From the NCBI GenBank assembly GCA_030431255.1, contig JAUIJL010000006.1:155850-219849 (forward strand): a stretch of DNA of 64,000 nucleotides, in the 5' to 3' direction. The notes below the pieces were generated by a model, which ran no database searches, had not been told where the DNA came from, and saw only the letters and a list, made by a program, of their open reading frames with translations. Of the stretch, positions 3,132-55,275 are shown piece by piece (within the stretch, counting starts at the first letter, position 1; every line of letters starts with the position of its first letter). Both the position numbers and the translations under genes were made by a program. Origin of the DNA: Thermoanaerobaculia bacterium. Lineage in GTDB: Bacteria; Acidobacteriota; Thermoanaerobaculia; Multivoradales; J023.

Positions 3132-3387
3132 GGCGGCAGTCTCGCAGAATCGGAAACTGCGGGAAACCCCTCCGATTCGACAGCCGACCGGCCACCGAGT
3201 CGGAGATTGCCTCACCGATGCGCCGGTGCTAAAGTGCCGCCGATTAGCCTGCTCTGCTGATTTCGTGTATTTGTCGATTCTAGTCTGGAACTCTTACCGA
3301 AGACCCATACATGCCCCATTGGCCCAGCTCCGCGGACGGTTGCCGACAGCGGCGTCATCCCGCTGAAGTCGGCCGACGAAGCCCGCA

Positions 3388-21534: not shown

Positions 21535-21556
21535 GCGGGATCTCCGTCGTTTCGGC

Positions 21557-25005: not shown

Positions 25006-25153
25006 GGGGTGAGGTCGACCTCCTTAAATAAAAACGGATGTGTTTCCGAGGCCGTCGGATCTTACCAGCCAAGTCGATGGTCGACAGCCCAGTGATCGTC
25101 GACAGCCCAGTGATCGTCGACACCGTTCGTGCGGAGCGGTTACCATCGATCCC

Positions 25154-32367: not shown

Positions 32368-32383
32368 CGTTTGCTCCTCGGCA

Positions 32384-33532: not shown

Positions 33533-33542
33533 CTCGACCTCC

Positions 33543-34235
33543 TCACGCCGCCTCGGCGCCTACCAGCAGACCTTTTTCCAACCGAACCAAACGCTTGGCA
33601 CGACGGGCGGCCCCCGGATCGTGGGTCACCATCACGATGGTCTTGCCGAAATCTTCGTTGAGCTGCTGCAAGAGATCGAGGATCTCGCCGGCGCTCTCGC
33701 TGTCGAGGTCACCGGTCGGCTCGTCGGCGAGCAGCAAGGCGGGATCGGTCACGATCGAGCGGGCAATGGCCACCCGCTGCTCCTGGCCGCCCGAGAGCTG
33801 ACGGGGGTAGTGGTCCATGCGATCCGCCAGCCCCACCACCTGCAAGGCCGTCTCCACTTTCTGTCGCCGCTTGGCCTTGCTCAGCCGGGTCAGCGTCAGC
33901 GGCAGCTCGACATTCTCGAAGGCGGTCAGCACCGGCAACAAATTGTAGAACTGAAAGATGAAGCCGATGTGCCGGTGACGCCACCGGGCCAGCTTGCTGT
34001 CGCTGAGCTTCGACATATCGCTGCCACCGACCACGATCTTGCCGGCGGTGGGTTTATCGATCCCGGCCAGGAGATTGAGCAAGGTGCTCTTGCCGGACCC
34101 GGAGGGGCCCATCAGGGCCACGTACTCACCGGAGTGAATCTCCAAATCGATACCTTGAAGCACCTGAACCTCAAAGCTCTCCTTCTTATAAGTTTTCTCA
34201 AGGCCCGAAACCTCGACAATCACTTGCTGAGACAT
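33543..34235 (-). CDS. ABC transporter ATP-binding protein (MacB/LolD-type ATPase)
   Basis: Walker [10 protein letters not shown], signature [14 protein letters not shown], Walker [14 protein letters not shown]-loop VMVTHD. Start at ATG 34235 (MSQQVIVEV). Confidence 0.85.
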
Positions 34236-34303
34236 GCTCGTATCTCCCCTATCGCCTGATGATCGGCTTCCGCCGCTGATTGCTCTCTCCAATCCGTAAA
34301 TCT

Positions 34304-35530
34304 CTAGTCGCCGGCTTCCTTGACCTGCTGTCCGTCTTTGAGATCCGCGACCTCAGAGACCACCACTCGATCTCCGGCCTTCAAACCCGACAGCACGACC
34401 CGCTCGTTGCCTTCGCTTTGCCCGAGCTCCACGGCACGCAGCTCGAGGACGTTCTTGCCGAGCACGAACACCCGATTCTCCCCACCACGCTTGAAGACCG
34501 CGCCGGACGGCACGTAGAGCACCGGCTCGGCTTCCAAGGTTTCCGCCACGGTGCCCTCTTCGAGAAAGGTCACTGTACAGCTCATATCCGGCACCAGCCG
34601 CTCGTCGCGATCATCGATCGTGACCTTGACCTGAACCACCGCACGCTGCCGATCCGCGGTCGGAACGATTTGCCGCAGCCGCCCCCGATAGGCCTTGTCC
34701 GGCACCGCGTCGACCTTGATCGACACCGGTTGCTCGCGCCGCAAGCGGGCGATATAGCTCTCGTTGATGTCCGCTTCTATCTCCAGGGACGTCGGGTCCG
34801 CCATGCGCAGGATGGCGCCGGTGGACTGCTGGGAGGTGAAGCCGCCCGGGGCGACCATTTCGCCCACCTCGACGTTTTTCTCGATCACCACACCGTCGAT
34901 CGGCGCGTAGACCCTGGCGTATGCCAGCTGGGCCTCGGCCGATTCGAGCCGCGCCTTCGCCAGCTCTACTTGAGCAGCCACCACATCGGTTCGAGTGGAC
35001 GCGGCGTCCAGCTCCGCTTGCGCCGAAACCCCCGCCTCGACCAGGCGGGTCAACCGAGCTTGCTCGCGTTTCGCATCCGCCAGCTGAGCCTCAGCTTCCA
35101 AGATAGCGGCCTCGGCTTGTGCCCTCGATGCTTCCAAATCGTCACTGTCCAGAACGGCGATCAGGTCTCCCTCTTGGAGGGTATCCCCTTCATCAACGTC
35201 GATCTGCAGAATGCGACCGACGATCTTGGCCCCCACTGCCGCCCGCTTTCTGGCATAGGTATAGCCCGTGGCGGTGAGCACCGTGGACTTTTGGGTCGGG
35301 GTCTCCATGCGCACCGACGCCGTTTCCACCTTCGGCAGGAGAAAAGAAAGCGGCACGTAAGCCCAGGCCCCGTAGCCCGCGGCGACCAATAGGGCCAAGC
35401 CCAACAACCAACCCAACCAACCCGCGCTCCTGCGTTCTTCGAGCTCTTCCGGATCCATCCTCAAGACGGAGAGATCCGGCCTACCGGAACGATCGTCACT
35501 ATCTGCCATAGGAAGTGGTTCCTTATTCAA
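34304..35530 (-). CDS. Periplasmic adaptor / membrane fusion protein (HlyD/MacA/DevB family)
   Basis: N-terminal TM, then a coiled-coil (ASRAQAEAAILEAEAQLADAKREQARLTRL), lipoyl and beta-barrel segments typical of MFPs. First gene of an MFP-ATPase-permease-permease operon. Confidence 0.75.
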   Translation of the reverse strand: MNKEPLPMADSDDRSGRPDLSVLRMDPEELEERRSAGWLGWLLGLALLVAAGYGAWAYVPLSFLLPKVETASVRMETPTQKSTVLTATGYTYARKRAAVGAKIVGRILQIDVDEGDTLQEGDLIAVLDSDDLEASRAQAEAAILEAEAQLADAKREQARLTRLVEAGVSAQAELDAASTRTDVVAAQVELAKARLESAEAQLAYARVYAPIDGVVIEKNVEVGEMVAPGGFTSQQSTGAILRMADPTSLEIEADINESYIARLRREQPVSIKVDAVPDKAYRGRLRQIVPTADRQRAVVQVKVTIDDRDERLVPDMSCTVTFLEEGTVAETLEAEPVLYVPSGAVFKRGGENRVFVLGKNVLELRAVELGQSEGNERVVLSGLKAGDRVVVSEVADLKDGQQVKEAGD

Positions 35531-42169: not shown

Positions 42170-43069
42170 CTATCCCTTGGATTGGATCGGCGGTGCGCCG
42201 TCACCCCGAATGTCCGGTCGGGTCGTGGGAGATGGGGGAGCGTTCAGATCGCCGCCGCCACCGCCCGGATTGTTGGGGTTCGGTTTCTGTTGCTTCGGCT
42301 CGCTCGATGGCTGGGGCGTTTGGGGGACCACCCCTTCGGGCCAATTACCCGTGATCTCCCAGGCCAAAAACGGCGTCAGCAACGACGGATTCGCGGGTCC
42401 ACCCTGCTTTTGGGTGGCGTAGAGCTCGACCGTGAACTGCCATTCGTTGAGATTTTCTTTTCCCAGAAATCGCAAGACCGACTCCTCGGACATCGCCGCG
42501 TAAACACCCCGGATCTGCATGTTTGAAGGGGGTGCGCCGAAGGTCTCCTCGGGGTCGGCCGAGAGAATGGTGCCGGGCGCCTCACCACCTCGCCCTTGGT
42601 CGAGCTCGTCATCCTCACCGAAACCATCGTCTTCGCCGAAGCCGCCACCCAGCTCCTGCGGCTGACCGGGCTGCCCCTGTTGACCTGGCTGACCTGGCTG
42701 ACCGGGCCGCAGCCCCGCCGGCACCAATCCCCAGCGGCCGTCCTCGCGCATGGGGTTTTCCCACAGCCGCCGGATACATCGAGGCTCGACCTCGATCAAC
42801 TCCTTGAGCTGGTTCGGATATCGGTTGTAGCGGGCCTGAAAAACCCGGATCGCCTCGGCGTATTGCATGCCGCGGAAGATCAGCTCCGCCTCTTTATCCC
42901 GTTGGATTTGATGGCTCCACACCGGCAAGCTGGACGCCACCCAGATGTTGAGCAGGGTCACCGCCACCGTCAGCACCACCAAGTTGTAGGCCCGCCGGCT
43001 CCCTGGTGCACGAAACGACAAGTCCGAGACGCGGCGTCTCAAACGCGTCAGGCGGCCCTGCGGCGTCAT
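42170..43069 (-). CDS. Putative type II secretion minor component (GspK-like?) with Gln/Pro/Gly-rich C-terminus
   Basis: Start ATG 43069 overlaps the upstream pseudopilin stop (ATGA). N-terminal single TM ([19 protein letters not shown]), then a periplasmic domain. Placement after pseudopilins suggests GspK/minor pseudopilin. Weak. Confidence 0.35.
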
Positions 43070-43085
43070 CCCGTCACCCACGACG

Positions 43086-43553
43086 TCACCACTCGGAGTA
43101 GGGCTCGCCTTCGAGGGAGCTTTGGGTCGACTTGGAGTAGACGTCGATGATGCCCGCGGCCGCGCCACCGTCGATGAAGTCCGATTCGACCGCCCCTTCT
43201 TCGGCGCCTTCCTGATCGTAGACCAAGCCCCAATCCTCCGATTCCATGATCGGATCGATGGGCACGTTGCGCAGATAACCCTCCTCGACCAGCGCGTCGA
43301 GGGACGGCGGATAGACCCCTTTGTCGCCATAGTGCTGATCGATCACCTCGCGCAGAGTGCGCAGATTCGTTTTCAGCACCGCTTCTTTGGCCCGGCGTGG
43401 GGTGTTGATCATGTTCGGCATGGCGATCGCCGCCAAAATGCCGATGATCGAGATGACGATGATCAGCTCCAAGAGGGTAAATCCTCGGCGACGCGATGCG
43501 ACGTTTTGGCTGGGCGCCGGCACCAAAGAGCTGGGGTGGGGATTGGGAATCAT
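43086..43553 (-). CDS. gspG: Type II secretion major pseudopilin (GspG-like) / type IV pilin-like protein
   Basis: Prepilin leader ending ...RRRG|FTLLELIIVISIIGILAAIA (class III signal, Glu+5), then NTPRRAKEAV. Start ATG 43553. The overlapping ORF 43066..43710 in another frame is rejected. Confidence 0.75.
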   Translation of the reverse strand: MIPNPHPSSLVPAPSQNVASRRRGFTLLELIIVISIIGILAAIAMPNMINTPRRAKEAVLKTNLRTLREVIDQHYGDKGVYPPSLDALVEEGYLRNVPIDPIMESEDWGLVYDQEGAEEGAVESDFIDGGAAAGIIDVYSKSTQSSLEGEPYSEW

Positions 43554-43576
43554 GGGAATACCTTTTCGCTCGCGGC

Positions 43577-44062
43577 TCACCACTCGGAGTAGGGGATGTC
43601 GTTGAGACCGATGCCGCTCGACAGGGAGTAGACGTCGTATACGTTCTCTCCTCCCCACGAGCTGGCGTCGAAATCGTCTTGATAGCTGCGCAAGCCCCAT
43701 TCCGCTTCACCGGTCATGGGATCGATCGGAATCCGACGCAAGAACCTTTGGTTTTTGTCGATCTGGCCTACCAGCTCGACCCCTTCGACCAAGATTTCGA
43801 GCTCGGCGGGATAACCCTCGGTGCCGAGCTCCACCGGTAGAAGCCCGGCGTCGCTGAAGCGCTTGTAGTCGTCGATAGCGTTGCGCATTTGGCGCAGAGC
43901 TTTTCGCAGCTCGATTTCCTTCTGGCGCCGGACGGTAAATCTAGCGACCGGGAAGACCGTCAAGGAAAGTATCGAGAGCAGGGTGCAGACCACCAACAGC
44001 TCCGTCATGCTATAACCCGCCATCGCGCGACGCTTGCGAGTCATTTGATTCAAGACGGTCAT
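43577..44062 (-). CDS. Pseudopilin / type IV pilin-like protein (second copy)
   Basis: ...AMAG|YSMTELLVVCTLLSILSLTV is a prepilin N-terminal methylation motif. Start uncertain (ATG 44062 or 44044). Confidence 0.65.
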   Translation of the reverse strand: MTVLNQMTRKRRAMAGYSMTELLVVCTLLSILSLTVFPVARFTVRRQKEIELRKALRQMRNAIDDYKRFSDAGLLPVELGTEGYPAELEILVEGVELVGQIDKNQRFLRRIPIDPMTGEAEWGLRSYQDDFDASSWGGENVYDVYSLSSGIGLNDIPYSEW

Positions 44063-44197
44063 AGCTTGGGTCCTAGGCTCATGGAACGGATGGTGAAGAA
44101 CAGATGCCGGCTGCCGGCGCACTGTATTTGCCGGAGCAAAGGGCGGCCGCGGCCGCCCTTTGCTTTCAGTCCTTTTACGTAATCGGGCCCCGGAGCG

Positions 44198-46126
44198 TTA
44201 GTTCTCTTCCTCGTCGTCACTCTTCTTGAACGGATCGTCGAAACCGGACGGCGCCAAGTCCACCCCTTGGGGGGCTTCCTCGACCGGCTCCTCAGAGCCC
44301 TCGTCACCGGCGTCTTGGAGACCTCGGGGAAGAGAGCGTAGGCGCTCACGCAAACGCTCGCGGACTCGGGTGCGGGCATCGGCATCGCCGTCGAACGGAC
44401 CTTCGACATCCGACTCGACCCGCGGGCTACCGCCCCGGAAGGTGATGTTGCTTTCGGTGCCGACCCAGATGGGCAGCAGGTCGTTGCGCTCGATGGACGC
44501 CCGACGGATCACGTGCGGGGTCAAGGTGAGCACGATGTCGGTCCGGCGACGCTCGTTGGAGACGTTGGTGAAAAGGCGGCCGAGCACCGGAATATCCGAA
44601 AGGCCCGGAATGCCCGACTCCGATTGGGATTCCTCGGCGCGGATCAAACCGGCGAGGAAATTGGTCTCGCCGTCGCGCAGGCGGATATTGGACTCGATGG
44701 TTCGGGTTCCGATCACCGGCTGCTGCTGACCGCCGGAGCCGGTGACGAACGAGGTGATGTCGGACACCTCGACCTTCACCTTGAGGGAGACCTCTTGGTT
44801 GTGGTGAACCCGCGGCTCGAGCTCAATCTTGATGCCGACCTCTTGGTATTGAAAGGAGGTCACCGGGACGATGTTGCCGCCCACCGTATTCGAGGTGTTG
44901 AAGGTGGTGGTAGGAATCGGCACCCGATCACCGATCACCAACGAAGCCTTCTCGCCCTCGGTGATGCGCAGCTTCGGCTGGGCCAACGCTTGGGCGTCGC
45001 CGGCGCTTTTCAGGAAATCGAAAAGGAAGCTAGGCACGGTGAGCACCCAGTTGTTCTGATTCAGATACTGCAGGTCGGAGATGCGCAGGGGCACATTCTC
45101 ACCACCGAGGTCGAGGCTCGAGCTGATGCTGTTCTCCGACAGGCTCAAACCCAGATCCTGCAATTTGTTGGTGTTGATCTGCAGCAGCTCGACGTCGACC
45201 ACCACCTCGGCCTTGGCCTTGTCGTTGGCCAGGATGATCTGCTCGGCGACCTTCACCTTGTCGGCGGTGTCGCGCAACACGATGGCGTTGAGCTGCTCGT
45301 TGGCGGCCACGTGCTTGGCACCGATCAAGCTGCGCACCATGGTCATCACGTCCTTCACCTCGGCGTTGTCGAGGAAGAAGGTCTGGATGACTTGGTCTTC
45401 GTAGTTGCGACGATTCTGCGGTGTGTCGTCGGCGATGATGATCGAGTGCTCGTCCAACACCTTGTAGAAGTGGCCGACGGTGCGCATCAGGATTTCCAGG
45501 CCACCTTGAGCGGTCACTTCCTTGAGCTCGATGGAGATCTCTTGGTCCTTCAGCTTGGGATCGAAGAGCACATTGACGCCGAACGCCTTGCCCAACGCCC
45601 GGTAGATATCCATCACCGACGCGGGCTTGGAGAAGATCAAATCGATGGGGTCGTCGGAGCGCGGGTTGAGGATCGGCGGCTGCGCCCGCGCGCCTTCCAC
45701 CCCCTCCTTCATCTCCGCGATGGTCTGGATGCCCTCTCCGCCTTCGGCCAGGGCTTTCATCTCGTCGACCACCCGGCCGAGCTCGGCCTCGGCAAATTGA
45801 TTCGTGGGGTCGAGCTCAATGGCTTGGCGATATTCCACCAAAGCCCGCTCCAGGACACCGGCGTTGTGGAATTTCTTGCCCCTCTGGACGTGCTTTTGCG
45901 AAGCCTGGATCTTGGCCCGCATCAACGCGGCGCGATAGGCGATGTTGTCCGGGTCCTGACGAACCGCCTCCAGGTATCTGAGGACCGCTTCGTCCCAATC
46001 TCCGGTCTGCTCCGCGGCTTGGGCCTGGCGGAAATGGCCTTGGGTGGCACAGCCCGAGATAAGGACCGCCATCAATAGTGCCGAAAGTGCGCCGATCCAC
46101 GGCCGCACCGGTCGTGCGTTTCGCAT
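44198..46126 (-). CDS. gspD: Secretin (GspD/PilQ family) with N-terminal lipoprotein signal and TPR module
   Basis: Signal LLMAVLISGC (lipobox). TPR-like AVLRYLEAVRQDPDNIAYRAALMRAKIQ...ERALVEYRQAIELDPTNQF. N-domains, then C-terminal secretin domain (...VLTLTPHVIR). Start ATG 46126. Confidence 0.8.
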   Translation of the reverse strand: MRNARPVRPWIGALSALLMAVLISGCATQGHFRQAQAAEQTGDWDEAVLRYLEAVRQDPDNIAYRAALMRAKIQASQKHVQRGKKFHNAGVLERALVEYRQAIELDPTNQFAEAELGRVVDEMKALAEGGEGIQTIAEMKEGVEGARAQPPILNPRSDDPIDLIFSKPASVMDIYRALGKAFGVNVLFDPKLKDQEISIELKEVTAQGGLEILMRTVGHFYKVLDEHSIIIADDTPQNRRNYEDQVIQTFFLDNAEVKDVMTMVRSLIGAKHVAANEQLNAIVLRDTADKVKVAEQIILANDKAKAEVVVDVELLQINTNKLQDLGLSLSENSISSSLDLGGENVPLRISDLQYLNQNNWVLTVPSFLFDFLKSAGDAQALAQPKLRITEGEKASLVIGDRVPIPTTTFNTSNTVGGNIVPVTSFQYQEVGIKIELEPRVHHNQEVSLKVKVEVSDITSFVTGSGGQQQPVIGTRTIESNIRLRDGETNFLAGLIRAEESQSESGIPGLSDIPVLGRLFTNVSNERRRTDIVLTLTPHVIRRASIERNDLLPIWVGTESNITFRGGSPRVESDVEGPFDGDADARTRVRERLRERLRSLPRGLQDAGDEGSEEPVEEAPQGVDLAPSGFDDPFKKSDDEEEN

Positions 46127-46173
46127 GCTTCTCAATCTCCTCGCTCCCTCGAGCGAATCCAAGGGACCCACGA

Positions 46174-46758
46174 TCAGCGCTCGCCGATCTCGATTCGGGT
46201 CGTTTCGTCTTCTGGAAAATCGACGAAACGAAATTCCACCCACTGAAGGCCTATTTCGTTGACGATGAATTGATCCTTGATCACGTCCTCGTGCAACGCA
46301 TTGATGATCTCTTTGCCGTCTATCAACACCGCGATTCGGCGATCCTCAGGGCCGAAAATGCCGAGCAGGTCCAGATCCACCGGCGGCGGTCGACGAACCG
46401 GCGGCCCCGGATCCACCACCGGCGGCGGAGGGGGAGGGGGCACATACGGCGGAGGAGGGGGCGGTGGGGGCGGTGCCACCCGACGTTGACCGTAGCGGAA
46501 AATATTCCGGTTCGGCTCGTAGGTGGCAGCCTCGGCGTTCAGGTCTTCCAGCTTGACCATCACCACGGGTCTTTTGGTGATTCGCTTGGTTTTGGCCACC
46601 CTCTTACTGGCTCTCGATTGCCCAGCCTTCTCACTGGTCCAACCCTTCATCGCCGGCAAGACGAACCGCCAACCGACCACCAGAAGCAAAGCGATCAGCA
46701 GAAGATTGAGCATCTTCTTTTGTTGCTCGGGGCTGCCCAGCCCGCCGCCTTGTCTCAT
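46174..46758 (-). CDS. PilP/GspC-like secretin-interacting protein (TM + poly-Pro linker + C-terminal beta domain)
   Basis: TM LLLIALLLVVGW, linker APPPPPPPPPYVPPPPPPP, C-terminal RIAVLIDGKEIINALHEDVIKDQFIVNEI (PilP/HR-domain-like). Sits immediately upstream of the secretin. Confidence 0.45.
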   Translation of the reverse strand: MRQGGGLGSPEQQKKMLNLLLIALLLVVGWRFVLPAMKGWTSEKAGQSRASKRVAKTKRITKRPVVMVKLEDLNAEAATYEPNRNIFRYGQRRVAPPPPPPPPPYVPPPPPPPVVDPGPPVRRPPPVDLDLLGIFGPEDRRIAVLIDGKEIINALHEDVIKDQFIVNEIGLQWVEFRFVDFPEDETTRIEIGER

Positions 46759-47558
46759 GTTTCTTCGTCCTCTTCAGGCGTCGACCCGTTGTCGCCTTCC
46801 GGCAAACCTTCTGTCGACAGCTCTTGGCTCGGCAAAGCTCGTGTCGATTCTTCTACGCTGCCCGGGCTCTCCGCATCTAGGCTTTCTTCGCCCTCGGGAT
46901 CTTCTTCGTCGTCGATGTCTACCGACAGCTCCATCGTCGGATCGAGGGCGGTGCCTTCGGTGAGCACCTCGTTGGCCAGCTCCAGGGATTCGGCATCGTT
47001 CTGGGCAAACATGGTGGAGGCACCGAAGCGCAATTGCAGGCGCGCGTCGCGATCCCCTTTGCCACCGGCCAGCTTCACCGATTCCAGGGTCAGAAATTGA
47101 TCGGTCAGCTCCAGAAAGTTGATGAACGTCCGGAGCTGGTCGTAGGTGCCGTCGACGGAAAAGCGAATTCCCAGTCGATTGAGCTCGTAGGCGTCGATCT
47201 CACTACCCGGGTAGGAAAAGCTCCGCGGATCCAAGCCGGCTCGCCGAGCGAGGGTTCGAATTTCCCGAAGCACCCGCGTGAATCGCTCACTTTCAGTGGC
47301 GAAGTGATCTCTGTACAAGGTGCCGACCTGGCGGTCCTGCTCGGCGACTCGTTGCAGGAATTCCTCTGCTCGCTCCACCTCCGAGCGGTGGCTTTCGAGC
47401 CTCGTCGCCCGATTGCCGTAGCGATCTTCCAACTTGTCCAGCTGGCCCGCATAGGTCGCCTGGTAGTAGAAGATCCCACCCAGGCAGAGTGAGACGAAGG
47501 CCGCGGGGAGCCACCAGACCCAGGAGCGCTGACGCCAAGCCGCGAATTTATCGTTCAT
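46755..47558 (-). CDS. PilO/GspM-like inner-membrane alignment protein
   Basis: Start ATG 47558 overlaps the upstream stop. N-terminal TM (WVWWLPAAFVSLCLGGIFYY), a coiled coil, then a domain. Acidic C-terminal tail. Confidence 0.5.
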   Translation of the reverse strand: MNDKFAAWRQRSWVWWLPAAFVSLCLGGIFYYQATYAGQLDKLEDRYGNRATRLESHRSEVERAEEFLQRVAEQDRQVGTLYRDHFATESERFTRVLREIRTLARRAGLDPRSFSYPGSEIDAYELNRLGIRFSVDGTYDQLRTFINFLELTDQFLTLESVKLAGGKGDRDARLQLRFGASTMFAQNDAESLELANEVLTEGTALDPTMELSVDIDDEEDPEGEESLDAESPGSVEESTRALPSQELSTEGLPEGDNGSTPEEDEET

Positions 47559-48985
47559 GACGTCACCTCCGTCCCGCGCTCGCTGGGCTCGGAATAGCTC
47601 GGCTCGGAAATATCCGGCGTCCAGAGCAAGAAGTCCGGTATCCAACGGTCGAAGAGACTGCCCTGCAACCTAGGAGACGAGGATGCCGCGGGCAAAGTGG
47701 GTGAAGGCGTAGTGGCACCCGAACGGGTGGTGGATGGCCGTGCCCCGGGTCGCGCGGGGCTCGGCGTGGTTTGCGGAACCACGTTTTGCTGTTGCAGCCT
47801 CCTTTGGGCCCGCTCACGTGCTCGGGCTTCTTTCTCAGCCTGCTCTCGCGCCCTGGCGTCTTCGATGCTCGACGTGCTCGAGCCGGCTCCGGGAGCCACG
47901 GACACCGTCGATCGTGGGCGAGTGACCGAGCGAGACCCCCTCGAGCGGCTATGTCGACGTCGGGTAGCTTCCTCGACCTCGGACTCGCCTTCTTCCGGTG
48001 GAAAGCCCGTGCTCGCCTGGGGCTCTGCCCGCCTCACGTCGCGAGAGCTCCGGCCGCGATCAGCCCTCGACGAGGTCCTTGACCGCGAGTCGGTTGTGAC
48101 CGGAGATCCCGTGGGTCGCAAGGTCGAGGGTTGCCCTTCGATCTCGGGTACGGGTTCTTCGATCACGGAGACCATCTCGGGACGAGCTCCCGCGTCGGTG
48201 CGATCGGAGGCGCTGCCGGACGCGAGGGCGAGCTGCTCGGCGCCGGGGTCACCTTCCTCCGGCGGCGGAGCGTTTCGTTTCGGCGTGAGATAAACCGTTT
48301 TGATGTTGAAGCTCAGCTTGCCCGTCTTGTCCTTGCTCTCGCGAGACAAGGTGGGATCCAAGAAAGACGGGCTTTGGTAGAGCAAATCGACAAACTCAAA
48401 GAGGGCTTCGTCGTTTTTGGCGTAACCGCGCAAGGTCAGAGTCACGCGATCTCCGGAGAAGTACGACTCTTCGTCCTGCTCGTCCTCGAGCTCATCACTG
48501 TCGTCGATGTCGTCGGCGTCGCTCTCACCCCGCGCCCGAGCTCGCGCCTCGCGGGCGGTGAGGGCTCGACTGGGCCTCGCCGACTCGGAAATCGCCGGCT
48601 GCTTGGCCAAACGCAGGGAGGGCTGCACCGACCCCAAATACACGTCGATCGGTAGCACTTTCTCAAGATCGTCGAAAAGCGCGCTCCAAGGAAAGGTGCG
48701 ATTGTGGATCAACGAGTTCAGATAGCGAGCTTTGCGGTTGCGGTCACCGAGATTCAGGCTCCTCAGCTCTTTCCACAGCTCCGCCAAGCGATCTTCTTCC
48801 TGCTGGATTTGGCGGTTGAGGGATTGCAAACGACCCTTGCCTTTCTCGGACCCGCTGAAGTGACTGGCATAGAGCCAGATATTCACCAACAACAGGAGCG
48901 CACCCAAGACCCACAAACAGGCCGCGACCCGCACCACCGGCCGACGATTGATAAACGGTCGGCGTGAAAGATTGACCACCTTCAC
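47555..48985 (-). CDS. PilN-like protein (GspL periplasmic-part homolog) with long disordered Ser/Arg/Glu-rich C-terminus
   Basis: N-terminus NLSRRPFINRRPVVRVAACLWVLGALLLL resembles the PilN INLLP...RR + TM. GTG start adjacent to the PilM-like stop. Confidence 0.5.
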   Translation of the reverse strand: MKVVNLSRRPFINRRPVVRVAACLWVLGALLLLVNIWLYASHFSGSEKGKGRLQSLNRQIQQEEDRLAELWKELRSLNLGDRNRKARYLNSLIHNRTFPWSALFDDLEKVLPIDVYLGSVQPSLRLAKQPAISESARPSRALTAREARARARGESDADDIDDSDELEDEQDEESYFSGDRVTLTLRGYAKNDEALFEFVDLLYQSPSFLDPTLSRESKDKTGKLSFNIKTVYLTPKRNAPPPEEGDPGAEQLALASGSASDRTDAGARPEMVSVIEEPVPEIEGQPSTLRPTGSPVTTDSRSRTSSRADRGRSSRDVRRAEPQASTGFPPEEGESEVEEATRRRHSRSRGSRSVTRPRSTVSVAPGAGSSTSSIEDARAREQAEKEARARERAQRRLQQQNVVPQTTPSPARPGARPSTTRSGATTPSPTLPAASSSPRLQGSLFDRWIPDFLLWTPDISEPSYSEPSERGTEVTS

Positions 48986-48986
48986 G

Positions 48987-49961
48987 TCAATACACCTCTA
49001 AGCTCGCTGCGCCGAGCAATGGCGCCGTTCTCACCCAAGAAACACCGGCTCGACCCCGGGTCAGCTCAAAATGCTCGAATCTCAGGGGCTCCGGAGTGAG
49101 ATCCAGCTCCCCTTGGAGCCATCCCAACCACTGCTCTTCAAGCTCTTCCGGAGCGGCCAAGAACGCCCGATGGAGGGGCGTGTCCGGGAAGTGACGCCCA
49201 AGAAAGCTGATCGTCATCCGCAGATCTCTGAGCACGGAGTCGCCGTAGGCGCCACCGTCGGCGAACGCTTTGTAGCGATAAAGCAACGGCTCGCCGGAGC
49301 GGAAGAAGCTGAGGGAGTAGGAGTCGTCGAAGACGCTGACCAGGGCCGCCAGCTCGTCCGGTGCCACCGTATGCTCCACGCTCGACAATAGGGCCAGGGT
49401 GGTGTTGGTGATGTTGCCCAATTGAACGCCGGCTTGCTCGAAAGCGTTTTCGAGCTGGGTCATCAACAGCTCGATGGCGAAGCCCAACAGCAGACGCATG
49501 GGCTCTTCTTGGTTGGGGAACGGGGTCACCTGCATGGCCGAGATGCGCAGATCGTCGACCGAGAAGGGCACCAAGCGCTTGAGCTTCCAGGCCAAGATTT
49601 CGTGACGATCCGCCGGATTGCGGGGCAAATCGGAGATCTCGGAGAACACCAGGCGCATCCAGGTGTCGGGCAGCACGAGGGACGCCACGGGCACGGGCGC
49701 CCCGACGTCGGCCACCAAGGCTTCGAGGCTTTTTTGGAAGCCCTTGATGTCGCGCATGGGGCCTCCGAGCACCCCGTTGACGAAGGTTTCCTCGGGCAGC
49801 TCGACGCTTTTCTCGACGTCGAAAGCATAGCCTTGCGGACCCAAGTGGAACGCGCCGTAACGCAGCTCGTTTTGGGACACGGAGAAAACGTGCGGGGGAG
49901 ACGCGATCGGGTCGAAACCCAGGGCTCGCTCAATCCACGAAGGTAACTTTATTGATTTCAC
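48987..49961 (-). CDS. PilM-like / GspL-cytoplasmic-domain-like actin-fold protein
   Basis: ELPEETFVNG...LVLPDTWMRLVFSEISDLPRNPADRHEILAWKLKRLVPFSVDDL is colinear with the PilM N-terminal region. GTG start; overlaps the GspE stop by ~32 nt. Confidence 0.5.
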   Translation of the reverse strand: MKSIKLPSWIERALGFDPIASPPHVFSVSQNELRYGAFHLGPQGYAFDVEKSVELPEETFVNGVLGGPMRDIKGFQKSLEALVADVGAPVPVASLVLPDTWMRLVFSEISDLPRNPADRHEILAWKLKRLVPFSVDDLRISAMQVTPFPNQEEPMRLLLGFAIELLMTQLENAFEQAGVQLGNITNTTLALLSSVEHTVAPDELAALVSVFDDSYSLSFFRSGEPLLYRYKAFADGGAYGDSVLRDLRMTISFLGRHFPDTPLHRAFLAAPEELEEQWLGWLQGELDLTPEPLRFEHFELTRGRAGVSWVRTAPLLGAASLEVY

Positions 49962-51654
49962 GAAGCGTCGTGACTCCCTGGAAAACTTTCTCGAGGGCGG
50001 ATTCCCGCAAGAAGCTCATGCCTTCTTCCTTGGCGGCTCGTCGAATTTCGGCGGCCGGGCGGCGCGACAAAATGAGCTCACGGATCGGATCGGAAAGATG
50101 CAAAAGCTCGGTGACGGCGAGTCGTCCGTGGTAACCCGCACCGTTGCATTCGATGCACCCCTTGCCTTCGTAGAACGTGGTGTCCTCATAGGCGTCGGGA
50201 TCCAAACCGCTGTAATCCAACAGCTCACGGGAAAGATGAACCGGAGCTTTGCAGTGCTCGCAGATCCGGCGAACGAGCCGTTGGGCCAAAACGCAGTTGA
50301 GCGCGGAGACGAAATTGTACAGATCCACGTTCATATTGAGAAATCGGCCCAGGACGTCGACCACGTTGTTGGCGTGAACGGTAGTAAAGACCAAGTGTCC
50401 GGTCAACGCGGATTGAATGGCGATCTGGGCGGTTTCCTCGTCTCGAATCTCACCGATCATCACCTTGTCCGGATCGTGGCGCAGGATCGAGCGCAGACCC
50501 CTGGCAAATGTCAGGCCCTTCTTTTCGTTCACCGGAATCTGGGTGATGCCTTTGAGCTGATACTCCACCGGATCCTCAATGGTGATGATCTTGTCTTCCG
50601 GGGAGTTGATCTCGTTCAAACAAGCGTAGAGGGTGGTGGTTTTACCGGAACCCGTGGGGCCCGTCACCAACACCATGCCGTAGGGCTCGCGAATCGATTT
50701 GTTCAGCTTGCGCTGGGTTTCTTCGTCGATGCCCAGAACGTTGAGGCTCAGGTTGCGAAACTCCTTGTTCATCGACTCTTTGTCGAGCACACGGATCACG
50801 CAGTCTTCGCCGTGGACCGTCGGCAGGATGGAGACACGGAAATCAATGGTTCGGCCCCGAAGACGCAGCTTGAAGCGCCCGTCCTGGGGCACGCGCTTTT
50901 CAGAGATGTCGAGCTCGGACATCACCTTGATGCGGGAGATGATGGTCTGGTGATGTTTTTTGTCGATCGCTTCCATGGCCTGGAAGAGGGCGCCGTCGAT
51001 GCGGTACTTGATGTTGACCTCGGTGTCGCCGGTTTCAACGTGGATGTCGCTGGCGCGGCGCTCGATGGCGTTGAAGAGGGTGGAATCCACCAAGCGGATG
51101 ATGGGATTCTGCTCTTCGGCGGTGATGCTTTTGATCGAGACTTCTTCGTCGTCGTCACCGTGGACCAAGGTGATCTTGAAGTCTTCCGTGGCCTCTTCAA
51201 GGGCCCGCTGCGCGCTGTCGGACTTTTCCAACAGCTCGCGGATCGCCGACACCGCGCCGACTTTGACCTCCACCGGCTGGGCGAGCAGCATTTCCAGCTC
51301 GTCGATCTTGCGCACATCCGTGGGATCCGCCATCACCACGGTCATCCGTCCGTTGCCCTGAGATTCCGGCACGAATTGATAACGCAACATGACGTCGAAG
51401 GGCACCCGGCGGAAGAGATCGCTTTGAATGCGGAAATCGAAGACGTCGACGTATTCGAGCCCGTAGGCCTCGGCGATTTCCTGCGCCTTTTCCTCTTCCT
51501 CCCGGCGCTGCTCGGCGGACAGGCGCCCGGAGCCGCCGCTATCCACGGCTGCCGCGGTCGCGGTGTCGTTTTCGACCACCGCTTCCAGCACGTTGGTCAA
51601 CGGCTCGTCGGCGCTCGGATCGATTTCGATCGGGTTTTCGCTCTGAAATTCCAT
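49930..51654 (-). CDS. gspE: Type II secretion / type IV pilus assembly ATPase (GspE/PilB family)
   Basis: Walker A VLVTGPTGSGKTTTLYACL, Asp box, Walker B VMIGEIRDEETAQIAIQSALTGHLVFTTVHAN, tetracysteine CEHCK...CIECNGAGYHGR. Confidence 0.9.
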   Translation of the reverse strand: MEFQSENPIEIDPSADEPLTNVLEAVVENDTATAAAVDSGGSGRLSAEQRREEEEKAQEIAEAYGLEYVDVFDFRIQSDLFRRVPFDVMLRYQFVPESQGNGRMTVVMADPTDVRKIDELEMLLAQPVEVKVGAVSAIRELLEKSDSAQRALEEATEDFKITLVHGDDDEEVSIKSITAEEQNPIIRLVDSTLFNAIERRASDIHVETGDTEVNIKYRIDGALFQAMEAIDKKHHQTIISRIKVMSELDISEKRVPQDGRFKLRLRGRTIDFRVSILPTVHGEDCVIRVLDKESMNKEFRNLSLNVLGIDEETQRKLNKSIREPYGMVLVTGPTGSGKTTTLYACLNEINSPEDKIITIEDPVEYQLKGITQIPVNEKKGLTFARGLRSILRHDPDKVMIGEIRDEETAQIAIQSALTGHLVFTTVHANNVVDVLGRFLNMNVDLYNFVSALNCVLAQRLVRRICEHCKAPVHLSRELLDYSGLDPDAYEDTTFYEGKGCIECNGAGYHGRLAVTELLHLSDPIRELILSRRPAAEIRRAAKEEGMSFLRESALEKVFQGVTTLREINKVTFVD

Positions 51655-51682
51655 GCCTAGAGATTCTCCTCGGACCCCGGGC

Positions 51683-52897
51683 TTAGGCCCTGACCTGGCT
51701 TAGGGCGCCGAACATGGGCATATAAATCGACACCAAGAGAATACCGATCAGCAGACCCATGATGATCAACATCACCGGCTCGATCAACGCCAATAGACGC
51801 TCAACCCGAGTCTCCACATGCTCGTCGAAATAGTCGGCTACGGACGACAACATTTCGTCTAATGAGCCCGTGGCCTCTCCGACTTTGATCATGTCGATCG
51901 ACATGTGTGGGAAGACCTCGGTCTGCTCCAGCGCTTCGTTGAAGCTGGTGCCTTGGCGGACCCTTTCGATCGCCGGACCGATCTGCCCGCTGATGTGCTT
52001 ATTACCGATCGCGGTATTGGCGGTTTCGAAGGCCGACACGAAGGGAATACCGCCGGCGATCAAGGTCGACAAGGAACGGCAAAACTCGGACAACGAAAAG
52101 TAGAGGAAGATCGTGCCCAGCAGGGGGATGTACAGCTTCCAGCGATCGGCGGTCGCGCGTCCCGAGGGGCTCCGGCTCCAAATTCGGAAGGCGATACCTC
52201 CGATCAACAAGGCCCCGAAGGTGATCGCATAATAATCTCTCAAGAAAGAAGAGACGCTCAGGGTCACCTTGGTAATGGTCGGCAGCTCGGCCTCCAAATC
52301 GCCGTAGAACTGCGCGAACATAGGCACCACGTAGATCGCCATCACGACCAACATGGCGATCGACAATAGGATCAGCACCGACGGATAAACCATGGCCGAC
52401 ACCACCCGCTTGCGGGCATCGATCACCAAGCGCAAATAGCGGATAAACCGACGGATCACCTGCTCGAGCTCGCCGGATCGCTCGCCGGCCTTGAGGGTCG
52501 AGGCGTAGAGCGGCGGAAACATATCTCCGAAGCTGGCAAAGGCGTCCGACAGCTCCTCACCGGACTTCACCTTGTCGCGAATCTCGGTCAGGACCTCCTT
52601 CAGACCGGGATCCTCCATACGTTCCAGCATCATTTCCAGGCCCTGAAGCAGCGGCAGACCCGCGCGCAGCAGGGCCGCCAGCTCTTGGTTGAACGCCAAG
52701 AAAGCCGGCATGCTCATCTTTTTGCGACGGTTCGCGAACGGCAGCTGGAGCTGCATCAGGGGCGACCGAGGCTTTACCTCGAAGATGTGGCAGCCTTGCC
52801 TCTCCAGCTCTCGGCGCACAGCGCCGACATCGGTACCTTGTTGAACCTCGGTAAGAACCCGGCCGTCCGGGGTTCCGTAGCGACAAACGAATTGCAT
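51683..52897 (-). CDS. gspF: Type II secretion / T4P inner-membrane platform protein (GspF/PilC family)
   Basis: 404 aa with two GspF repeats (…LLRAGLPLLQGLEMM… and …LSTLIAGGIPFVSAFETA…) and 3 TM. Confidence 0.85.
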   Translation of the reverse strand: MQFVCRYGTPDGRVLTEVQQGTDVGAVRRELERQGCHIFEVKPRSPLMQLQLPFANRRKKMSMPAFLAFNQELAALLRAGLPLLQGLEMMLERMEDPGLKEVLTEIRDKVKSGEELSDAFASFGDMFPPLYASTLKAGERSGELEQVIRRFIRYLRLVIDARKRVVSAMVYPSVLILLSIAMLVVMAIYVVPMFAQFYGDLEAELPTITKVTLSVSSFLRDYYAITFGALLIGGIAFRIWSRSPSGRATADRWKLYIPLLGTIFLYFSLSEFCRSLSTLIAGGIPFVSAFETANTAIGNKHISGQIGPAIERVRQGTSFNEALEQTEVFPHMSIDMIKVGEATGSLDEMLSSVADYFDEHVETRVERLLALIEPVMLIIMGLLIGILLVSIYMPMFGALSQVRA

Positions 52898-52980
52898 GGT
52901 CTTAGGGCTCGGTCGAAGTCATCACGTGGAGGTCATTACAAAAAAGGAATCAGGTCTCGGATTTCTGCGGATTCTCAACC

Positions 52981-53781
52981 CTAGCGAGCGGGCGCCGGAT
53001 CAGCGGGAACGGGCTCCCGATGACACGAGATGGCGATCATCAGCGCCTCTTGCTTGGAATCGTCTTGGGCCAATACCAGCGTGAACGGCTTCTCCAACCA
53101 TAGGTTGAGGGTGGCATGAAAAAGCTGACGCGGGGGCAATCGCCGTCCCTTGTTGGTGGCCGGAATCTTCTTGACGATTTTGAAGCCCTCGAGCTTCAAC
53201 CGACGCCCCGCCATCACCGAGCCGAGCTTGAAGCTGACGTCGTAGCGCTCTCCGAGGGAATAGGTGACCTCATCCCCCTCCTTAGAGCTGACGCCCGCCT
53301 TGGCCAGAACCTGATAGTCCTCATAGCGGAGAAGGTTTCGGAGCCGATTCTCCAAATCTTCCGGCAGCTCGGCCACCGCCTGCTCTGCGGAGACGCTCGG
53401 CGGAGAGATGATGCTGCGGGTTTTCGGCCCCGCCTTCACCACCTGAATGTCGAGTCTCAGGTTCTCGGGCGGACGATCGAATTCGGCCAAGGTCGCTTTG
53501 ACCCTGGAGAGAGCGGCGACCGTATCCCGAAATACCAGGGTGTTGCTACCCGGTTGCTCCTCAATGGTGCCCCGATTCGTCAATTGAGGACGAATCAGCG
53601 CCATCGCATCCTTGGCGGAGCGATGCTGGAGGGTGTGAGCATAGACCTTGAGCACCTCGTTCGGAGCTTCGGCCGATGCCGGCCCTGCGCTCAAAAGCGA
53701 CAAGATGCAGAGGAGCCAAAGGCCGAGCGCTGAAGTGGCTCGGCCTCGGGATGCCGTCGACTGGGCTCGCTGGACGTTCAT
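52981..53781 (-). CDS. Secreted protein with secretin-N/STN-like domain (possible GspC/GspN-type accessory)
   Basis: Signal peptide LGLWLLCILSLLSAGPASAEA. LKVYAHTLQHRSAKDAMALIRPQL...NTLVFRDTVAALSRVKATLAEFD resembles the small secretin-N/STN fold. ATG 53781 chosen; ORF extends to 53892. Confidence 0.35.
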   Translation of the reverse strand: MNVQRAQSTASRGRATSALGLWLLCILSLLSAGPASAEAPNEVLKVYAHTLQHRSAKDAMALIRPQLTNRGTIEEQPGSNTLVFRDTVAALSRVKATLAEFDRPPENLRLDIQVVKAGPKTRSIISPPSVSAEQAVAELPEDLENRLRNLLRYEDYQVLAKAGVSSKEGDEVTYSLGERYDVSFKLGSVMAGRRLKLEGFKIVKKIPATNKGRRLPPRQLFHATLNLWLEKPFTLVLAQDDSKQEALMIAISCHREPVPADPAPAR

Positions 53782-53878
53782 GGGCTCAGGGATTCTCTTC
53801 CTTCGTTCTTGGATAGCTCGGAGATCATTCGGATTCTCTTCCGGAAAGCGGGGCGCCAAGGCCCCGCGGGCTCGACGA

Positions 53879-54496
53879 TCAGGCATCCCCACTACTGGGT
53901 GAAAGGCTGCTTGGTGAAAGGCCGTCCGGCGAAGGGTTGCCCGTCGGAAGGAGGTCCGACGAAAGGTCGCTGTCGGCGGCCATCACCACGACCAGAGACA
54001 CTCCGTCGTCTTCGATTTGCATCAGCGGGCCCATCTCCGGGGAAACGTCCTCGACCAACGGCAGCTGGGCGATCTCACTCGGTACCGGGGCAGGTCGCTG
54101 GGAGGCTTGCTCCCAAGTCGGAACGTCCGCCGAGTCCATGGTGATTCCGGTCAAACCGGCGACGGATACCGCCAGGGCCAGTAGCGCGGCGATCGACCAA
54201 TTTCGTGCCCGATCCGCGCTGCCGTCCACTTGGTCCCGCAGCCCGTCGGCCCGGCGCATAGACGCTTGGGTCCGCCTCATGGAAGCCACCGCATCTTTCA
54301 TCGCCTCGATATCCGCGGGTCCGGTTTCCACTTCCGGCAAGCCGTGGAAGAGCATCAACGGATCCGCGTCCACGGCAGCGTCCCACGCTTCGGGATCGTC
54401 GTCCATGGAGGCCAGAGCGGCCAGCCATTCGTCGGCATCCCGCTCGGGGTGACGGTCGTGCTCCGCCGTCAGGCGTTGCCAATCGATTTCGCTCAT
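53879..54496 (-). CDS. Putative anti-sigma factor (single-pass membrane protein)
   Basis: Start overlaps the ECF sigma stop (ATGA). Acidic cytoplasmic N-domain, one TM (WSIAALLALAVSVAGL), then a Pro/Ser-rich periplasmic tail. The position after the ECF sigma gene is the main evidence. Confidence 0.45.
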   Translation of the reverse strand: MSEIDWQRLTAEHDRHPERDADEWLAALASMDDDPEAWDAAVDADPLMLFHGLPEVETGPADIEAMKDAVASMRRTQASMRRADGLRDQVDGSADRARNWSIAALLALAVSVAGLTGITMDSADVPTWEQASQRPAPVPSEIAQLPLVEDVSPEMGPLMQIEDDGVSLVVVMAADSDLSSDLLPTGNPSPDGLSPSSLSPSSGDA

Positions 54497-55275
54497 CGAG
54501 AGCCCTCCGCCCGGCGTCCGCGGGCATATTCCGGATATTTTTCGACCAGCTTTTGGCGCAGCTGCTTGCGCGCGTTGAAAAGATGATTGCGCACGGTGGA
54601 TTCTCGGCAGCCGACGATCTCCGACACCTCTTTCGAGGGCAGGCCCTCGACTTCGCGCAGCAAAAAGACCATGCGCTGTTTTTCGGTCAGGTCGGCGGAA
54701 AGCTCTTGGAAGATGTCCATGATCTCGCGCTCGTGCAGATTGGCGCGATCCCGGCGAGCGCGATCCTCAAAGCCGGTTTGGATGTGCAGGCGGACCGGAT
54801 CGGTGTTGCGTTGCTTGCTCTGGCGCGACCTCAGCTGGTCGATGGCCAGGTTGGTGGCGATCCGATAGATCCACGTGTTCGGGCTCCACCGATCGTCGAA
54901 TCGATCCCGGTGCTCCCACAGACGAAAAAAGGTGATCTGCACGATGTCGCGCGCCTCTTCGGCGTCGTGGAGGATTCGGTTCACCGTGTTGACGAGGGGT
55001 CCGGTCTTGCGCTCGATCAGCTCGTCAAGGGCCAGCTCGTCGTCGTTCTTCAGGGCCCAGAGCAGCTCCTTGTCGGTGGCCTCCCGCAGCTCGACCCGGT
55101 GTCGGTTGACGGAGAAGGCCAGCTTGGGGCCGGTCGGCGTCGAGCCTGTTGTCTGTGCTGCGGTTAAGGTGGACATGGTTTGCTCTCTGGGTGCGTCGAC
55201 CTCCGCCCTGGGCGGATCGTCGTGGGTCTCGGGCGGGTCTTTGGTCGAGACCCCGTCGTCTGTTGTGGATGCCAT
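54493..55275 (-). CDS. RNA polymerase sigma-70 factor, ECF subfamily
   Basis: Region 2 (ITFFRLWEHRDRFDDRWSPNTWIYRIATNLAIDQLR) and region 4 (LPSKEVSEIVGCRESTVRNHLFNARKQLR). Start either 55275 or ATG 55176. Confidence 0.8.
   Translation of the reverse strand: MASTTDDGVSTKDPPETHDDPPRAEVDAPREQTMSTLTAAQTTGSTPTGPKLAFSVNRHRVELREATDKELLWALKNDDELALDELIERKTGPLVNTVNRILHDAEEARDIVQITFFRLWEHRDRFDDRWSPNTWIYRIATNLAIDQLRSRQSKQRNTDPVRLHIQTGFEDRARRDRANLHEREIMDIFQELSADLTEKQRMVFLLREVEGLPSKEVSEIVGCRESTVRNHLFNARKQLRQKLVEKYPEYARGRRAEGSR

Follow-up and report, generated by a model that had tools for sequence, protein, structure and literature searches.

Among described systems, the closest relative of the locus considered here is the 'Pul' atypical type II secretion system (T2SS) of Geobacter and Pelobacter. 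A curated Pelobacter table lists pulF-E-M-N-O-P, a 'secretin lipoprotein PulQ', pulG and oxpG (PMC3543383 Additional file 5), and in Geobacter the multicopper oxidase OmpB depends on the Pul system for its secretion (Mehta et al. 2006, as cited in PMC3543383). The lipoprotein nature of the PulQ-type secretin has therefore been part of curated annotation since at least 2012 (PMC3543383); in the literature, we found no mechanistic study of the Geobacter Pul secretin. A lipidated secretin is also known from the Hxc T2SS of Pseudomonas aeruginosa, where HxcQ carries an N-terminal lipid anchor and is targeted to the outer membrane in a Lol-dependent manner without a pilotin (Viarre et al. 2009, as cited in PMC3542185 and PMC12475490). 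Other systems use separate outer-membrane lipoproteins built of tetratricopeptide repeats (TPRs). PilF/PilW/Tgl, which promote secretin stability and multimerisation, have 13 helices (6 TPRs) and are predicted to grip the type IVa pilus (T4aP) secretin by its unfolded beta-lip (PMC10653833), while TadD, with 11 helices (5 TPRs), remains bound as a ring around the short secretin RcpA, its groove holding the last four residues of RcpA (PMC10499894; PDB 8odn). Here, we analysed a 64,000-nucleotide stretch of a Thermoanaerobaculia bacterium (GCA_030431255.1, contig JAUIJL010000006.1, positions 155,850 to 219,849), hereafter the window, which encodes a secretin precursor with a predicted lipid anchor and a TPR module on one chain. 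We propose, with a probability of roughly 60%, that this protein is a PulQ-type self-targeting liposecretin, which serves a conserved T2SS-like machine as its outer-membrane channel and uses its TPR as a membrane-proximal scaffold.

The precedents each share a part of this arrangement. The window protein resembles HxcQ in that a T2SS secretin would itself be a lipoprotein, and the same targeting route is proposed for it; lipidation has been demonstrated for HxcQ, whereas for the window protein it is predicted. In HxcQ, the anchor is joined to the N0 domain by a linker alone, and no TPR domain is known there. BfpB and TcpC, secretins of type IVb pili, are outer-membrane lipoproteins lipidated at their own N-termini, but they differ from the window protein in having no known TPR module and in belonging to type IVb pilus systems with another gene context. 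The N-terminus of the window protein is in turn reminiscent of PilF/PilW/Tgl, and, unlike its TPR, TadD is a separate protein. Our literature search returned no paper describing a TPR-secretin fusion; what it did return was HxcQ, TPR pilotins that are separate proteins, and the annotation of PulQ.

The secretin-precursor open reading frame (ORF) lies on the minus strand at 44198-46126 and encodes 642 aa plus a stop codon; its N-terminus reads MRNARPVRPWIGALSALLMAVLISGC. The longest frame given by the ORF finder opens at GTG 46243, but the true start is ATG 46126, because a GGAG lies 10 nt upstream, the preceding gene stops at 46174-46176 and the homologues begin with MRNARP... These observations confirm the coordinates given in the original prediction, and its layout of lipobox, TPR, N-domains and secretin domain is likewise confirmed by the lipobox rule and by the Pfam TPR, Secretin_N and Secretin matches described below. 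The precursor consists of a signal peptide with LISG↓C26, a five-helix TPR module, a linker of ~33 aa, N0, one Secretin_N, the secretin domain and an acidic tail, a domain layout that is far beyond chance. Its parts are as follows, with structural descriptions from AlphaFold2 (AF2) models and their predicted local distance difference test (pLDDT) scores.

46137..46140, minus strand: Shine-Dalgarno sequence GGAG, 10 nt 5' of the secretin ATG, read from the sequence
46052..46126, minus strand: signal peptide, residues 1-25 (MRNARPVRPWIGALSALLMAVLISG), with a basic n-region and a hydrophobic h-region
46049..46063, minus strand: lipobox LISG↓C, residues 22-26, with Cys26 as the first mature residue, predicted to be lipidated
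45746..46048, minus strand: TPR module, residues 27-127; five helices, beginning directly after the Cys with no tether
45647..45745, minus strand: linker, residues 128-160; pLDDT ~60 (AF2); motif ...AQPPxLNPRS..P partly conserved
45422..45646, minus strand: N0-like domain, residues 161-235; beta-alpha-beta-beta-alpha-beta-beta (AF2), pLDDT ~80; weak FecR_C match
45209..45385, minus strand: Secretin_N domain (N1/N3-type, ring-building), residues 248-306; PF03958, 31.1 bits vs 28.2; poor AF2 model
44504..45013, minus strand: Secretin domain (outer-membrane channel), residues 372-541; PF00263, E 8e-42, 143.1 bits vs 27.5
44318..44503, minus strand: S-domain-like region, residues 542-603; DLLPIWVGTE...GPFD...RVRERLRERLRSLPRGL; one amphipathic helix at mature residues 557-573; invariant columns
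44198..44317, minus strand: acidic disordered tail, residues 604-642, and stop; 15 D/E vs 2 K/R; motif GVDLAPxG

The evidence for lipidation comes first from the signal peptide and then from its conservation. The string ALLMAVLISGC (residues 16-26) satisfies a PROSITE PS51257-type rule, the n-region supplying Arg2 and Arg5, and in an alignment of 83 homologues (63-97% identity to the query, mean column identity 48%) the lipobox Cys column is invariant and Gly-1 nearly so, which supports the LISGC lipobox of the original prediction. For a wider census, the 120 closest cluster representatives were combined with the 149 best 50%-identity representatives, down to ~31% identity. Among the 237 N-terminally complete relatives, 206 carry [GAS]-C upstream of the TPR. 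In 183 of these 206 lipobox-bearing proteins the Cys stands exactly 18 residues ahead of the W/Y of the TPR core, and the +2 residue is A/S/T/G in 194 and Asp in none (0/206); it is Ala in the window protein. This pattern argues that the Cys-TPR lipobox arrangement is a selected feature and not a fortuitous string. A conserved lipobox, a fixed distance from it to the TPR and the absence of Asp at +2 mark the window protein as almost certainly a lipoprotein secretin. As in liposecretins of the HxcQ type, a predicted type II signal peptide ends at a lipobox Cys that would open the mature secretin, and the protein shares with the TPR pilotins the character of an outer-membrane lipoprotein, by sequence prediction only.

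The TPR module is equally clear. Three Pfam models matched above their gathering scores, all within residues 30-109 (TPR_11, E 1.7e-10, 40.8 bits vs cut-off 26.8; TPR_2, 34.9 bits vs 27; TPR_14, 26.4 bits vs 23.5), and AF2, applied to the isolated N-terminal 150 residues, gave five helices at mature residues 2-15, 19-32, 37-63 (long), 67-80 and 85-102 with pLDDT 94-98, in agreement with the ~100 aa of TPR-like repeats first noticed. In this model, the module amounts to roughly 2.5 repeats, and its first helix would begin one residue past the predicted lipidated Cys. The proposed comparison with PilF/PilW, however, did not bear out a specific kinship: the five helices stand against 13, the six-TPR (13-helix) superhelix of PilF/PilW/Tgl, with its concave groove, is absent, and the PilF/PilW/Tgl model TIGR02521 scores the module at 16.7 bits (E 0.004, over 50 residues) vs a cut-off of 154. 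Its structural neighbours are generic peptide-binding TPRs (Hop, Sgt2, Cpr7, TOM70, BamD and BepA), with no pilotin among them in the fold comparison. An NCBIfam match of residues 13-126 to the myxobacterial lipoprotein TraC was dismissed as a generic signal-peptide-plus-TPR likeness; TraC, itself a TPR lipoprotein, takes part in outer-membrane exchange and has an unrelated domain at its C-terminus (PMC8546572). The linker behind the module has conserved columns at K115, G120, Q124-P126, L128 and P130.

The remainder of the chain is that of a secretin. The N-domains and secretin domain of the original prediction were recovered as the PF03958 and PF00263 matches listed above and as an N0-like beta-alpha fold at mature residues 136-208 (AF2). 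The Secretin_N at 248-306 is the sole such domain that Pfam detected in the window secretin, and Pfam gave no AMIN match. In the AF2 model of the full mature protein (mean pLDDT 65), the N-terminal helical module is confident, N0 and barrel are reasonable and the N1 region is poor. Foldseek matches to solved secretins reached E 1e-13 to 1e-15 and included the BfpB structure 9u5s; among PDB sequences, the secretin core is nearest to the Acidithiobacillus caldus T2SS secretin 8jvb, followed by GspD proteins and RcpA, which matches the secretin domain with E 2.3e-20. The PF00263 domain, N0 and at least one Secretin_N, together with neighbouring GspE/GspF-type genes and pseudopilins, place the protein in the secretin superfamily. 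None of the curated subfamilies takes it in, as every NCBIfam secretin subfamily model scored below its cut-off. The canonical GspD model TIGR02517 gave 158 bits vs 351 with only its C-terminal part aligned, the N0-N1-N2-N3 layout being absent, and the T4aP PilQ model TIGR02515 gave 101 bits vs 284. Similarity to HxcQ is confined to the secretin core, with GspD-family scores below cut-off.

The C-terminal end varies in the family. The S-domain-like region is kept across Thermoanaerobaculia and partly in distant relatives, and the GVDLAPxG motif of the tail is nearly invariant in close relatives but missing from distant ones; some distant TPR-secretins end right after the barrel, without a tail. 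The TPR-secretin family as a whole does not conserve the tail, and some proteins in it have none; a TadD-like grip of the TPR on its own C-terminus is therefore unlikely, on sequence grounds, to be the common mode of these proteins. Pfam gave no cohesin (PF00963) match in the window protein, unlike many longer homologues, and the window secretin has lost this C-terminal domain. In homologues of ~770-925 aa (P0097-P0120, P0257 and P0508), named 'cohesin domain-containing protein' at NCBI, the cohesin follows the S-domain-like region, and to our knowledge no cohesin domain has been described on a secretin.

The same architecture was found well beyond this genome. We scanned one genome per GTDB species and obtained 374 stretches that encode a relative, of which the best 80 were followed at locus level; these belong to Thermoanaerobaculia, other Acidobacteriota or unclassified metagenome-assembled genomes (MAGs). 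The match spans mature residue 1 to ~600 in 78 of these best 80 loci, one contig is 97% identical, and full-length matches persist to 31-35% identity among the 50%-identity cluster representatives; the fusion that was to be looked for in orthologs is widely conserved. Within Thermoanaerobaculia, forms of ~840 aa add the C-terminal cohesin domain. In a sister lineage, the Bryobacterales (Paludibaculum fermentans, Ca. Solibacter and Bryobacteraceae MAGs), the homologous TPR is followed by a longer linker (an insertion of ~16-19 residues, counted by eye from the alignment), N0, secretin and cohesin; these forms have an ordinary signal peptide, and 116 of the 119 proteins are without the Cys. A third branch, labelled Deltaproteobacteria, Thermodesulfobacteriota or Geobacter, combines the lipobox with a TPR region of greater length, followed by STN, Secretin_N, Secretin and, in some proteins, cohesin; in SEED, one of its members is called 'Predicted secretion system X protein GspD-like'. 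The STN match (PF07660) of these deltaproteobacterial homologues presumably corresponds to the N0 region.

The secretin gene belongs to a cluster of co-oriented genes (42170-55275) with the order pulF-E-M-N-O-P-Q-G-oxpG. The other members of the cluster are the following, in the direction of transcription.

54493-55275, minus strand: ECF (extracytoplasmic function) sigma factor; Pfam Sigma70_r2/r4_2; syntenic
53879-54496, minus strand: putative single-pass membrane anti-sigma factor; transmembrane (TM) segment seen in the sequence; syntenic
52981..53892, minus strand: secreted 303-aa protein with a lone Secretin_N; PF03958, 36.4 bits; in 49 related Acidobacteriota loci
51683..52897, minus strand: GspF/PilC-type platform protein; Pfam T2SSF; best NCBIfam match GspF, below cut-off
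49930..51654, minus strand: GspE/PilB-type ATPase with MshEN N-domain; Pfam T2SSE, E 7e-131; 59% identity to the Geobacter Pul-cluster ATPase
48987..49961, minus strand: PilM/PulM-like gene; weak match to Thermus PilM 2ych, E 0.008; the gene at the same position in the Geobacter locus L081 matches PilM_2
47555..48985, minus strand: PilN-like gene with a long disordered C-terminal extension; Pfam PilN
46755..47645, minus strand: PilO/GspM-like gene; Pfam PilO; NCBIfam GspM_XpsM, weak
46174..46758, minus strand: PulP/PilP-like gene; TM segment, poly-proline spacer and small C-terminal beta domain; PulP position as in L081
43577..44062, minus strand: pseudopilin 1 (PulG position); G↓YSMTELLVV; N_methyl match; 46% identity to the first pseudopilin of L081; start inferred
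43086..43553, minus strand: pseudopilin 2 (OxpG position), GspG-like; G↓FTLLELIIV; N_methyl E 9e-9; partial GspG and PilA matches; 43% identity to the second pseudopilin of L081
42170..43069, minus strand: third, atypical pseudopilin-like ORF; hydrophobic N-terminal segment and Gly/Pro/Gln-rich insert; syntenic in 69/80 related loci

Synteny of these 13 genes extends across Thermoanaerobaculia and was seen in every long related locus. The Geobacter sp. locus L081 has the order T2SSF, T2SSE (MshEN), PilM, PilN, PilO, a 213-aa ORF, a TPR-secretin-cohesin protein (P0508), two N_methyl pseudopilins, ftsE, ftsX and an M23 peptidase. The window thus shares with the Geobacter/Pelobacter Pul clusters the order F-E-M-N-O-P-Q followed by two GspG-like pseudopilins, and the similarity of the ATPases and pseudopilins (59%, and 46% and 43% identity) extends to the secretin: P0508 is 32% identical over residues 17-560 (E 2e-87), lipobox and TPR included, and its N-terminus, ...LAFIAGC (lipobox FIAGC), leads into TPR-like helices. 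The TPR is shorter in the window protein (5 helices vs about 4 repeats in the Geobacter protein, by eye), and the cohesin domain is present in P0508 but not in the window protein. The window cluster has as extras the ECF sigma/anti-sigma pair, the lone Secretin_N protein and the third pseudopilin-like gene, and its flank is a dUTPase gene, which comes after the cluster, where Geobacter has ftsEX. Judged by this gene order and sequence similarity, what the 'Pul' atypical T2SS is in Geobacter and Pelobacter, the window cluster is in Acidobacteriota. The T4aP frame in which the secretin was originally placed does not fit, as the GspG-type pseudopilins and the Pul gene order make the system T2SS-like.

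Several members of the cluster deserve a separate word. The ECF sigma/anti-sigma pair is co-oriented and kept directly upstream, which suggests control of the machine by an envelope signal. The gene for the lone-Secretin_N protein, which heads the cluster and has no equivalent in the Geobacter sp. cluster, may by analogy encode an extra periplasmic ring; compare RhcC1 of the rhizobial type III secretion system, a split secretin fragment that is an N-terminal remnant (PMC4500985). The PilN-like protein has 476 aa vs 180 aa in the Geobacter cluster, the excess being a disordered C-terminal extension of ~250 aa rich in Ser/Arg/Pro/Glu. The PulP/PilP-like protein gave no family match in Pfam or NCBIfam; between its TM segment and C-terminal beta domain lies a run of ~20 prolines (PPPPPPPPPYVPPPPPPPVVDPGPP), which could be a rigid periplasmic spacer or a TPR ligand. 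The third pseudopilin-like ORF has no canonical prepilin motif and no match in Pfam or NCBIfam, and its insert is collagen-like. In locus L083 of Paludibaculum fermentans, a cultured member of the Bryobacterales, the TPR-secretin-cohesin gene, which has no lipobox, and its two pseudopilin genes stand apart from any pulF-E-M-N-O-P genes, and the Pul cluster is therefore fragmented in this lineage. KdtA and LpxK genes lie divergently upstream of the window cluster, and the organism therefore has an outer membrane with lipopolysaccharide.

According to the reading that we prefer, Sec would export the precursor, Cys26 would be diacylglycerol-modified, signal peptidase II would cut before Cys26 and the Cys would then be N-acylated. 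Through the Lol pathway, the monomer would reach the outer membrane at its inner leaflet, and the secretin would pilot itself, like HxcQ; Lol delivery is expected because the +2 residue is Ala and, in the relatives, nearly always small and never Asp. The five-helix TPR would lie flat on the membrane, because the module starts at mature residue 2, and the linker would lead the chain back to N0, which lies at the channel's periplasmic base. By our estimate, the ~33-residue linker and the TPR of ~45 Å could together reach from the outer-membrane leaflet down to N0, given that this secretin has only two N-domains. The TPR would be a docking and assembly scaffold near the membrane, in cis or on a neighbouring protomer, and would stay as a peripheral ring in a 1:1 ratio; a TPR lying against the membrane probably provides a scaffold for assembly or anchoring. 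What the data show is the sequence anatomy with its conservation, the synteny and a cluster free of pilotin genes; that the secretin is lipidated, is sorted by Lol and has a TPR with some chaperone role is inferred.

Several points weigh against this liposecretin with a TPR scaffold. First, the N-terminus of a secretin is normally far from the outer membrane, so the linker must span the vestibule. Second, the lipoprotein call is drawn from sequence, and the Lol sorting rules are not established in Acidobacteriota. Third, the TPR has ~2.5 repeats and shows no specific sequence or structural affinity to PilF/PilW/Tgl/TadD, and no segment docked confidently onto it in the AF2 monomer model, where linker and tail have pLDDT <60. 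Finally, because Bryobacterales keep the TPR without the Cys, the TPR must have a role that is separable from, or partly independent of, the lipid anchor.

Two other roles of the TPR have to be weighed. The first is that of a true in-cis pilotin, as the original prediction had suggested in describing a fused, self-piloting module. After Lol delivery, the TPR would grip an unfolded segment (beta-lip or S-domain) of its own or a neighbouring protomer and would drive oligomerisation at the outer membrane independently of the beta-barrel assembly machinery (BAM), and a lasting stoichiometric lipid-anchored ring would result; the Bryobacterales forms would then be derived, with targeting shifted to another factor. 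The self-piloting part of this proposal found support in the lipobox with its predicted anchor, in the precedent of HxcQ, the one characterised liposecretin, whose lipid anchor is enough by itself for piloting (PMC3542185, PMC12475490), and in the absence of a pilotin gene from the cluster. Pfam and NCBIfam searches turned up no second lipoprotein or TPR gene among the 13 conserved genes of the cluster, and family searches of the window proteins found no pilotin gene in the cluster or the 64-kb window. An 848-aa TPR ORF at 9572-12118 was set aside as a stand-alone pilotin, being large, without a family match and unlinked to the cluster. The pilotin identity of the TPR, however, fared poorly against the 2.5 repeats, the 16.7 bits vs 154 and the retention of the TPR without a lipobox in Bryobacterales, and we regard it as a tentative idea that is rather improbable. 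If it were true, the PulQ-type secretin would be a natural pilotin-secretin fusion, and a gene fusion or fission would connect liposecretins with the separate TPR pilotins that serve T4aP and Tad systems.

The second role is that of a general interaction platform, whose ligands might for example be substrates, the poly-proline protein in the PulP position, the protein with the lone Secretin_N or partners at the cell wall or division site, with the lipid anchor as an accessory that depends on the lineage. The Cys-less Bryobacterales with their homologous TPR and ordinary signal peptide speak for it, as do the generic peptide-binding TPRs among the structural neighbours and the ftsEX-envC cell-division genes that adjoin the Geobacter and Pelobacter clusters. 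The N-terminal module is also longer in deltaproteobacterial relatives, with alignment offsets of 14-54 residues (two-stretch matches) and, in Geobacter, the ~4 repeats counted by eye. However, in lipidated members a TPR that begins one residue past the Cys at invariant spacing argues for a membrane-surface role together with the anchor, and no partner protein was identified. We consider this explanation less likely than not but a serious rival, about as probable as the in-cis pilotin.

A very unlikely alternative is that the lipid anchor holds the N-terminus in the inner membrane, placing TPR and N0 beside the PulM-N-O-P platform and replacing the GspC-type link. N0 normally contacts the inner-membrane platform in T2SS and type IV pili, no recognisable GspC was found in the cluster with Pfam and NCBIfam, and lipoprotein sorting signals outside Proteobacteria are poorly known. 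Yet Asp at +2, the classical retention signal, does not occur in the lipobox-bearing relatives, where A/S/T/G prevail, a PulP/PilP-like protein able to make the link is already present, and the precedents HxcQ, BfpB and TcpC are outer-membrane lipoproteins. That Cys26 is not lipidated at all, the signal sequence being ordinary or uncleaved and the lipobox-like string fortuitous, is hardly credible: type I signal peptides do occur in a related lineage, but the invariant Cys, the preceding Gly/Ala/Ser and the fixed spacing persist down to ~31% identity, and the curators of Geobacteraceae genomes independently called the orthologue a lipoprotein.

The window has other features apart from the secretin locus. 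An ORF of more than 1362 aa (59903-63991, minus strand), which runs off the window end, encodes Calx-beta domains and a lactonase-type beta-propeller, and is possibly a secreted or surface protein; with 72-73% GC (0.91 at third codon positions) vs mostly 58-65% elsewhere in the window, this region is a compositional outlier. Four genes of the sulfatase family (PF00884) lie at 1230-3215, 19675-21738 and 21557-23431 (all -) and at 25040-27196 (+), two of them with long N-terminal extensions, and their neighbours include PAP2, PMT_2-type glycosyltransferase, UbiA prenyltransferase, LPG_synthase_TM and methyltransferase genes; this looks like a region for envelope-lipid or glycan modification. At 31204-35530 (minus strand), two MacB_PCD/FtsX permeases, an ABC ATPase and a periplasmic adaptor of the resistance-nodulation-division (RND) type form a MacAB-like exporter, whose ATPase has LolD as its best NCBIfam match, below cut-off. 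We rejected the ABC transporter at 31204-34292 as LolCDE, since it has a MacA/RND-type adaptor and scores far under the lolCE cut-off, and it is not informative on the Lol pathway.

In conclusion, the lipoprotein nature of the secretin is the part already known from annotation, and the remainder is deduced from domain architecture. What is new here is the fixed Cys-TPR geometry, the spread of the architecture across Acidobacteriota and deltaproteobacterial lineages (Thermodesulfobacteriota and Geobacter), the existence of lineages with and without the lipobox, and the link between the Acidobacteriota and Geobacter Pul systems. It is a matter of continuing debate how secretins arrive at and insert into the outer membrane and what TPR pilotins do; for PilF and Tgl, models are mostly computational, and the binding mode of TadD is a different one. 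With anchor and TPR on one chain, the stoichiometry is fixed at 1:1 and the interaction is obligatory, which is handy for cryo-electron microscopy and domain-deletion genetics, and the same TPR in lineages with and without the lipobox constitutes a natural experiment. Geobacter sulfurreducens offers a tractable host with an orthologous Pul system and an OmpB secretion phenotype. A major T2SS-like machine of Acidobacteriota, a dominant phylum of soils and sediments, is, on gene order and sequence similarity, the same system as the atypical T2SS of Geobacter.

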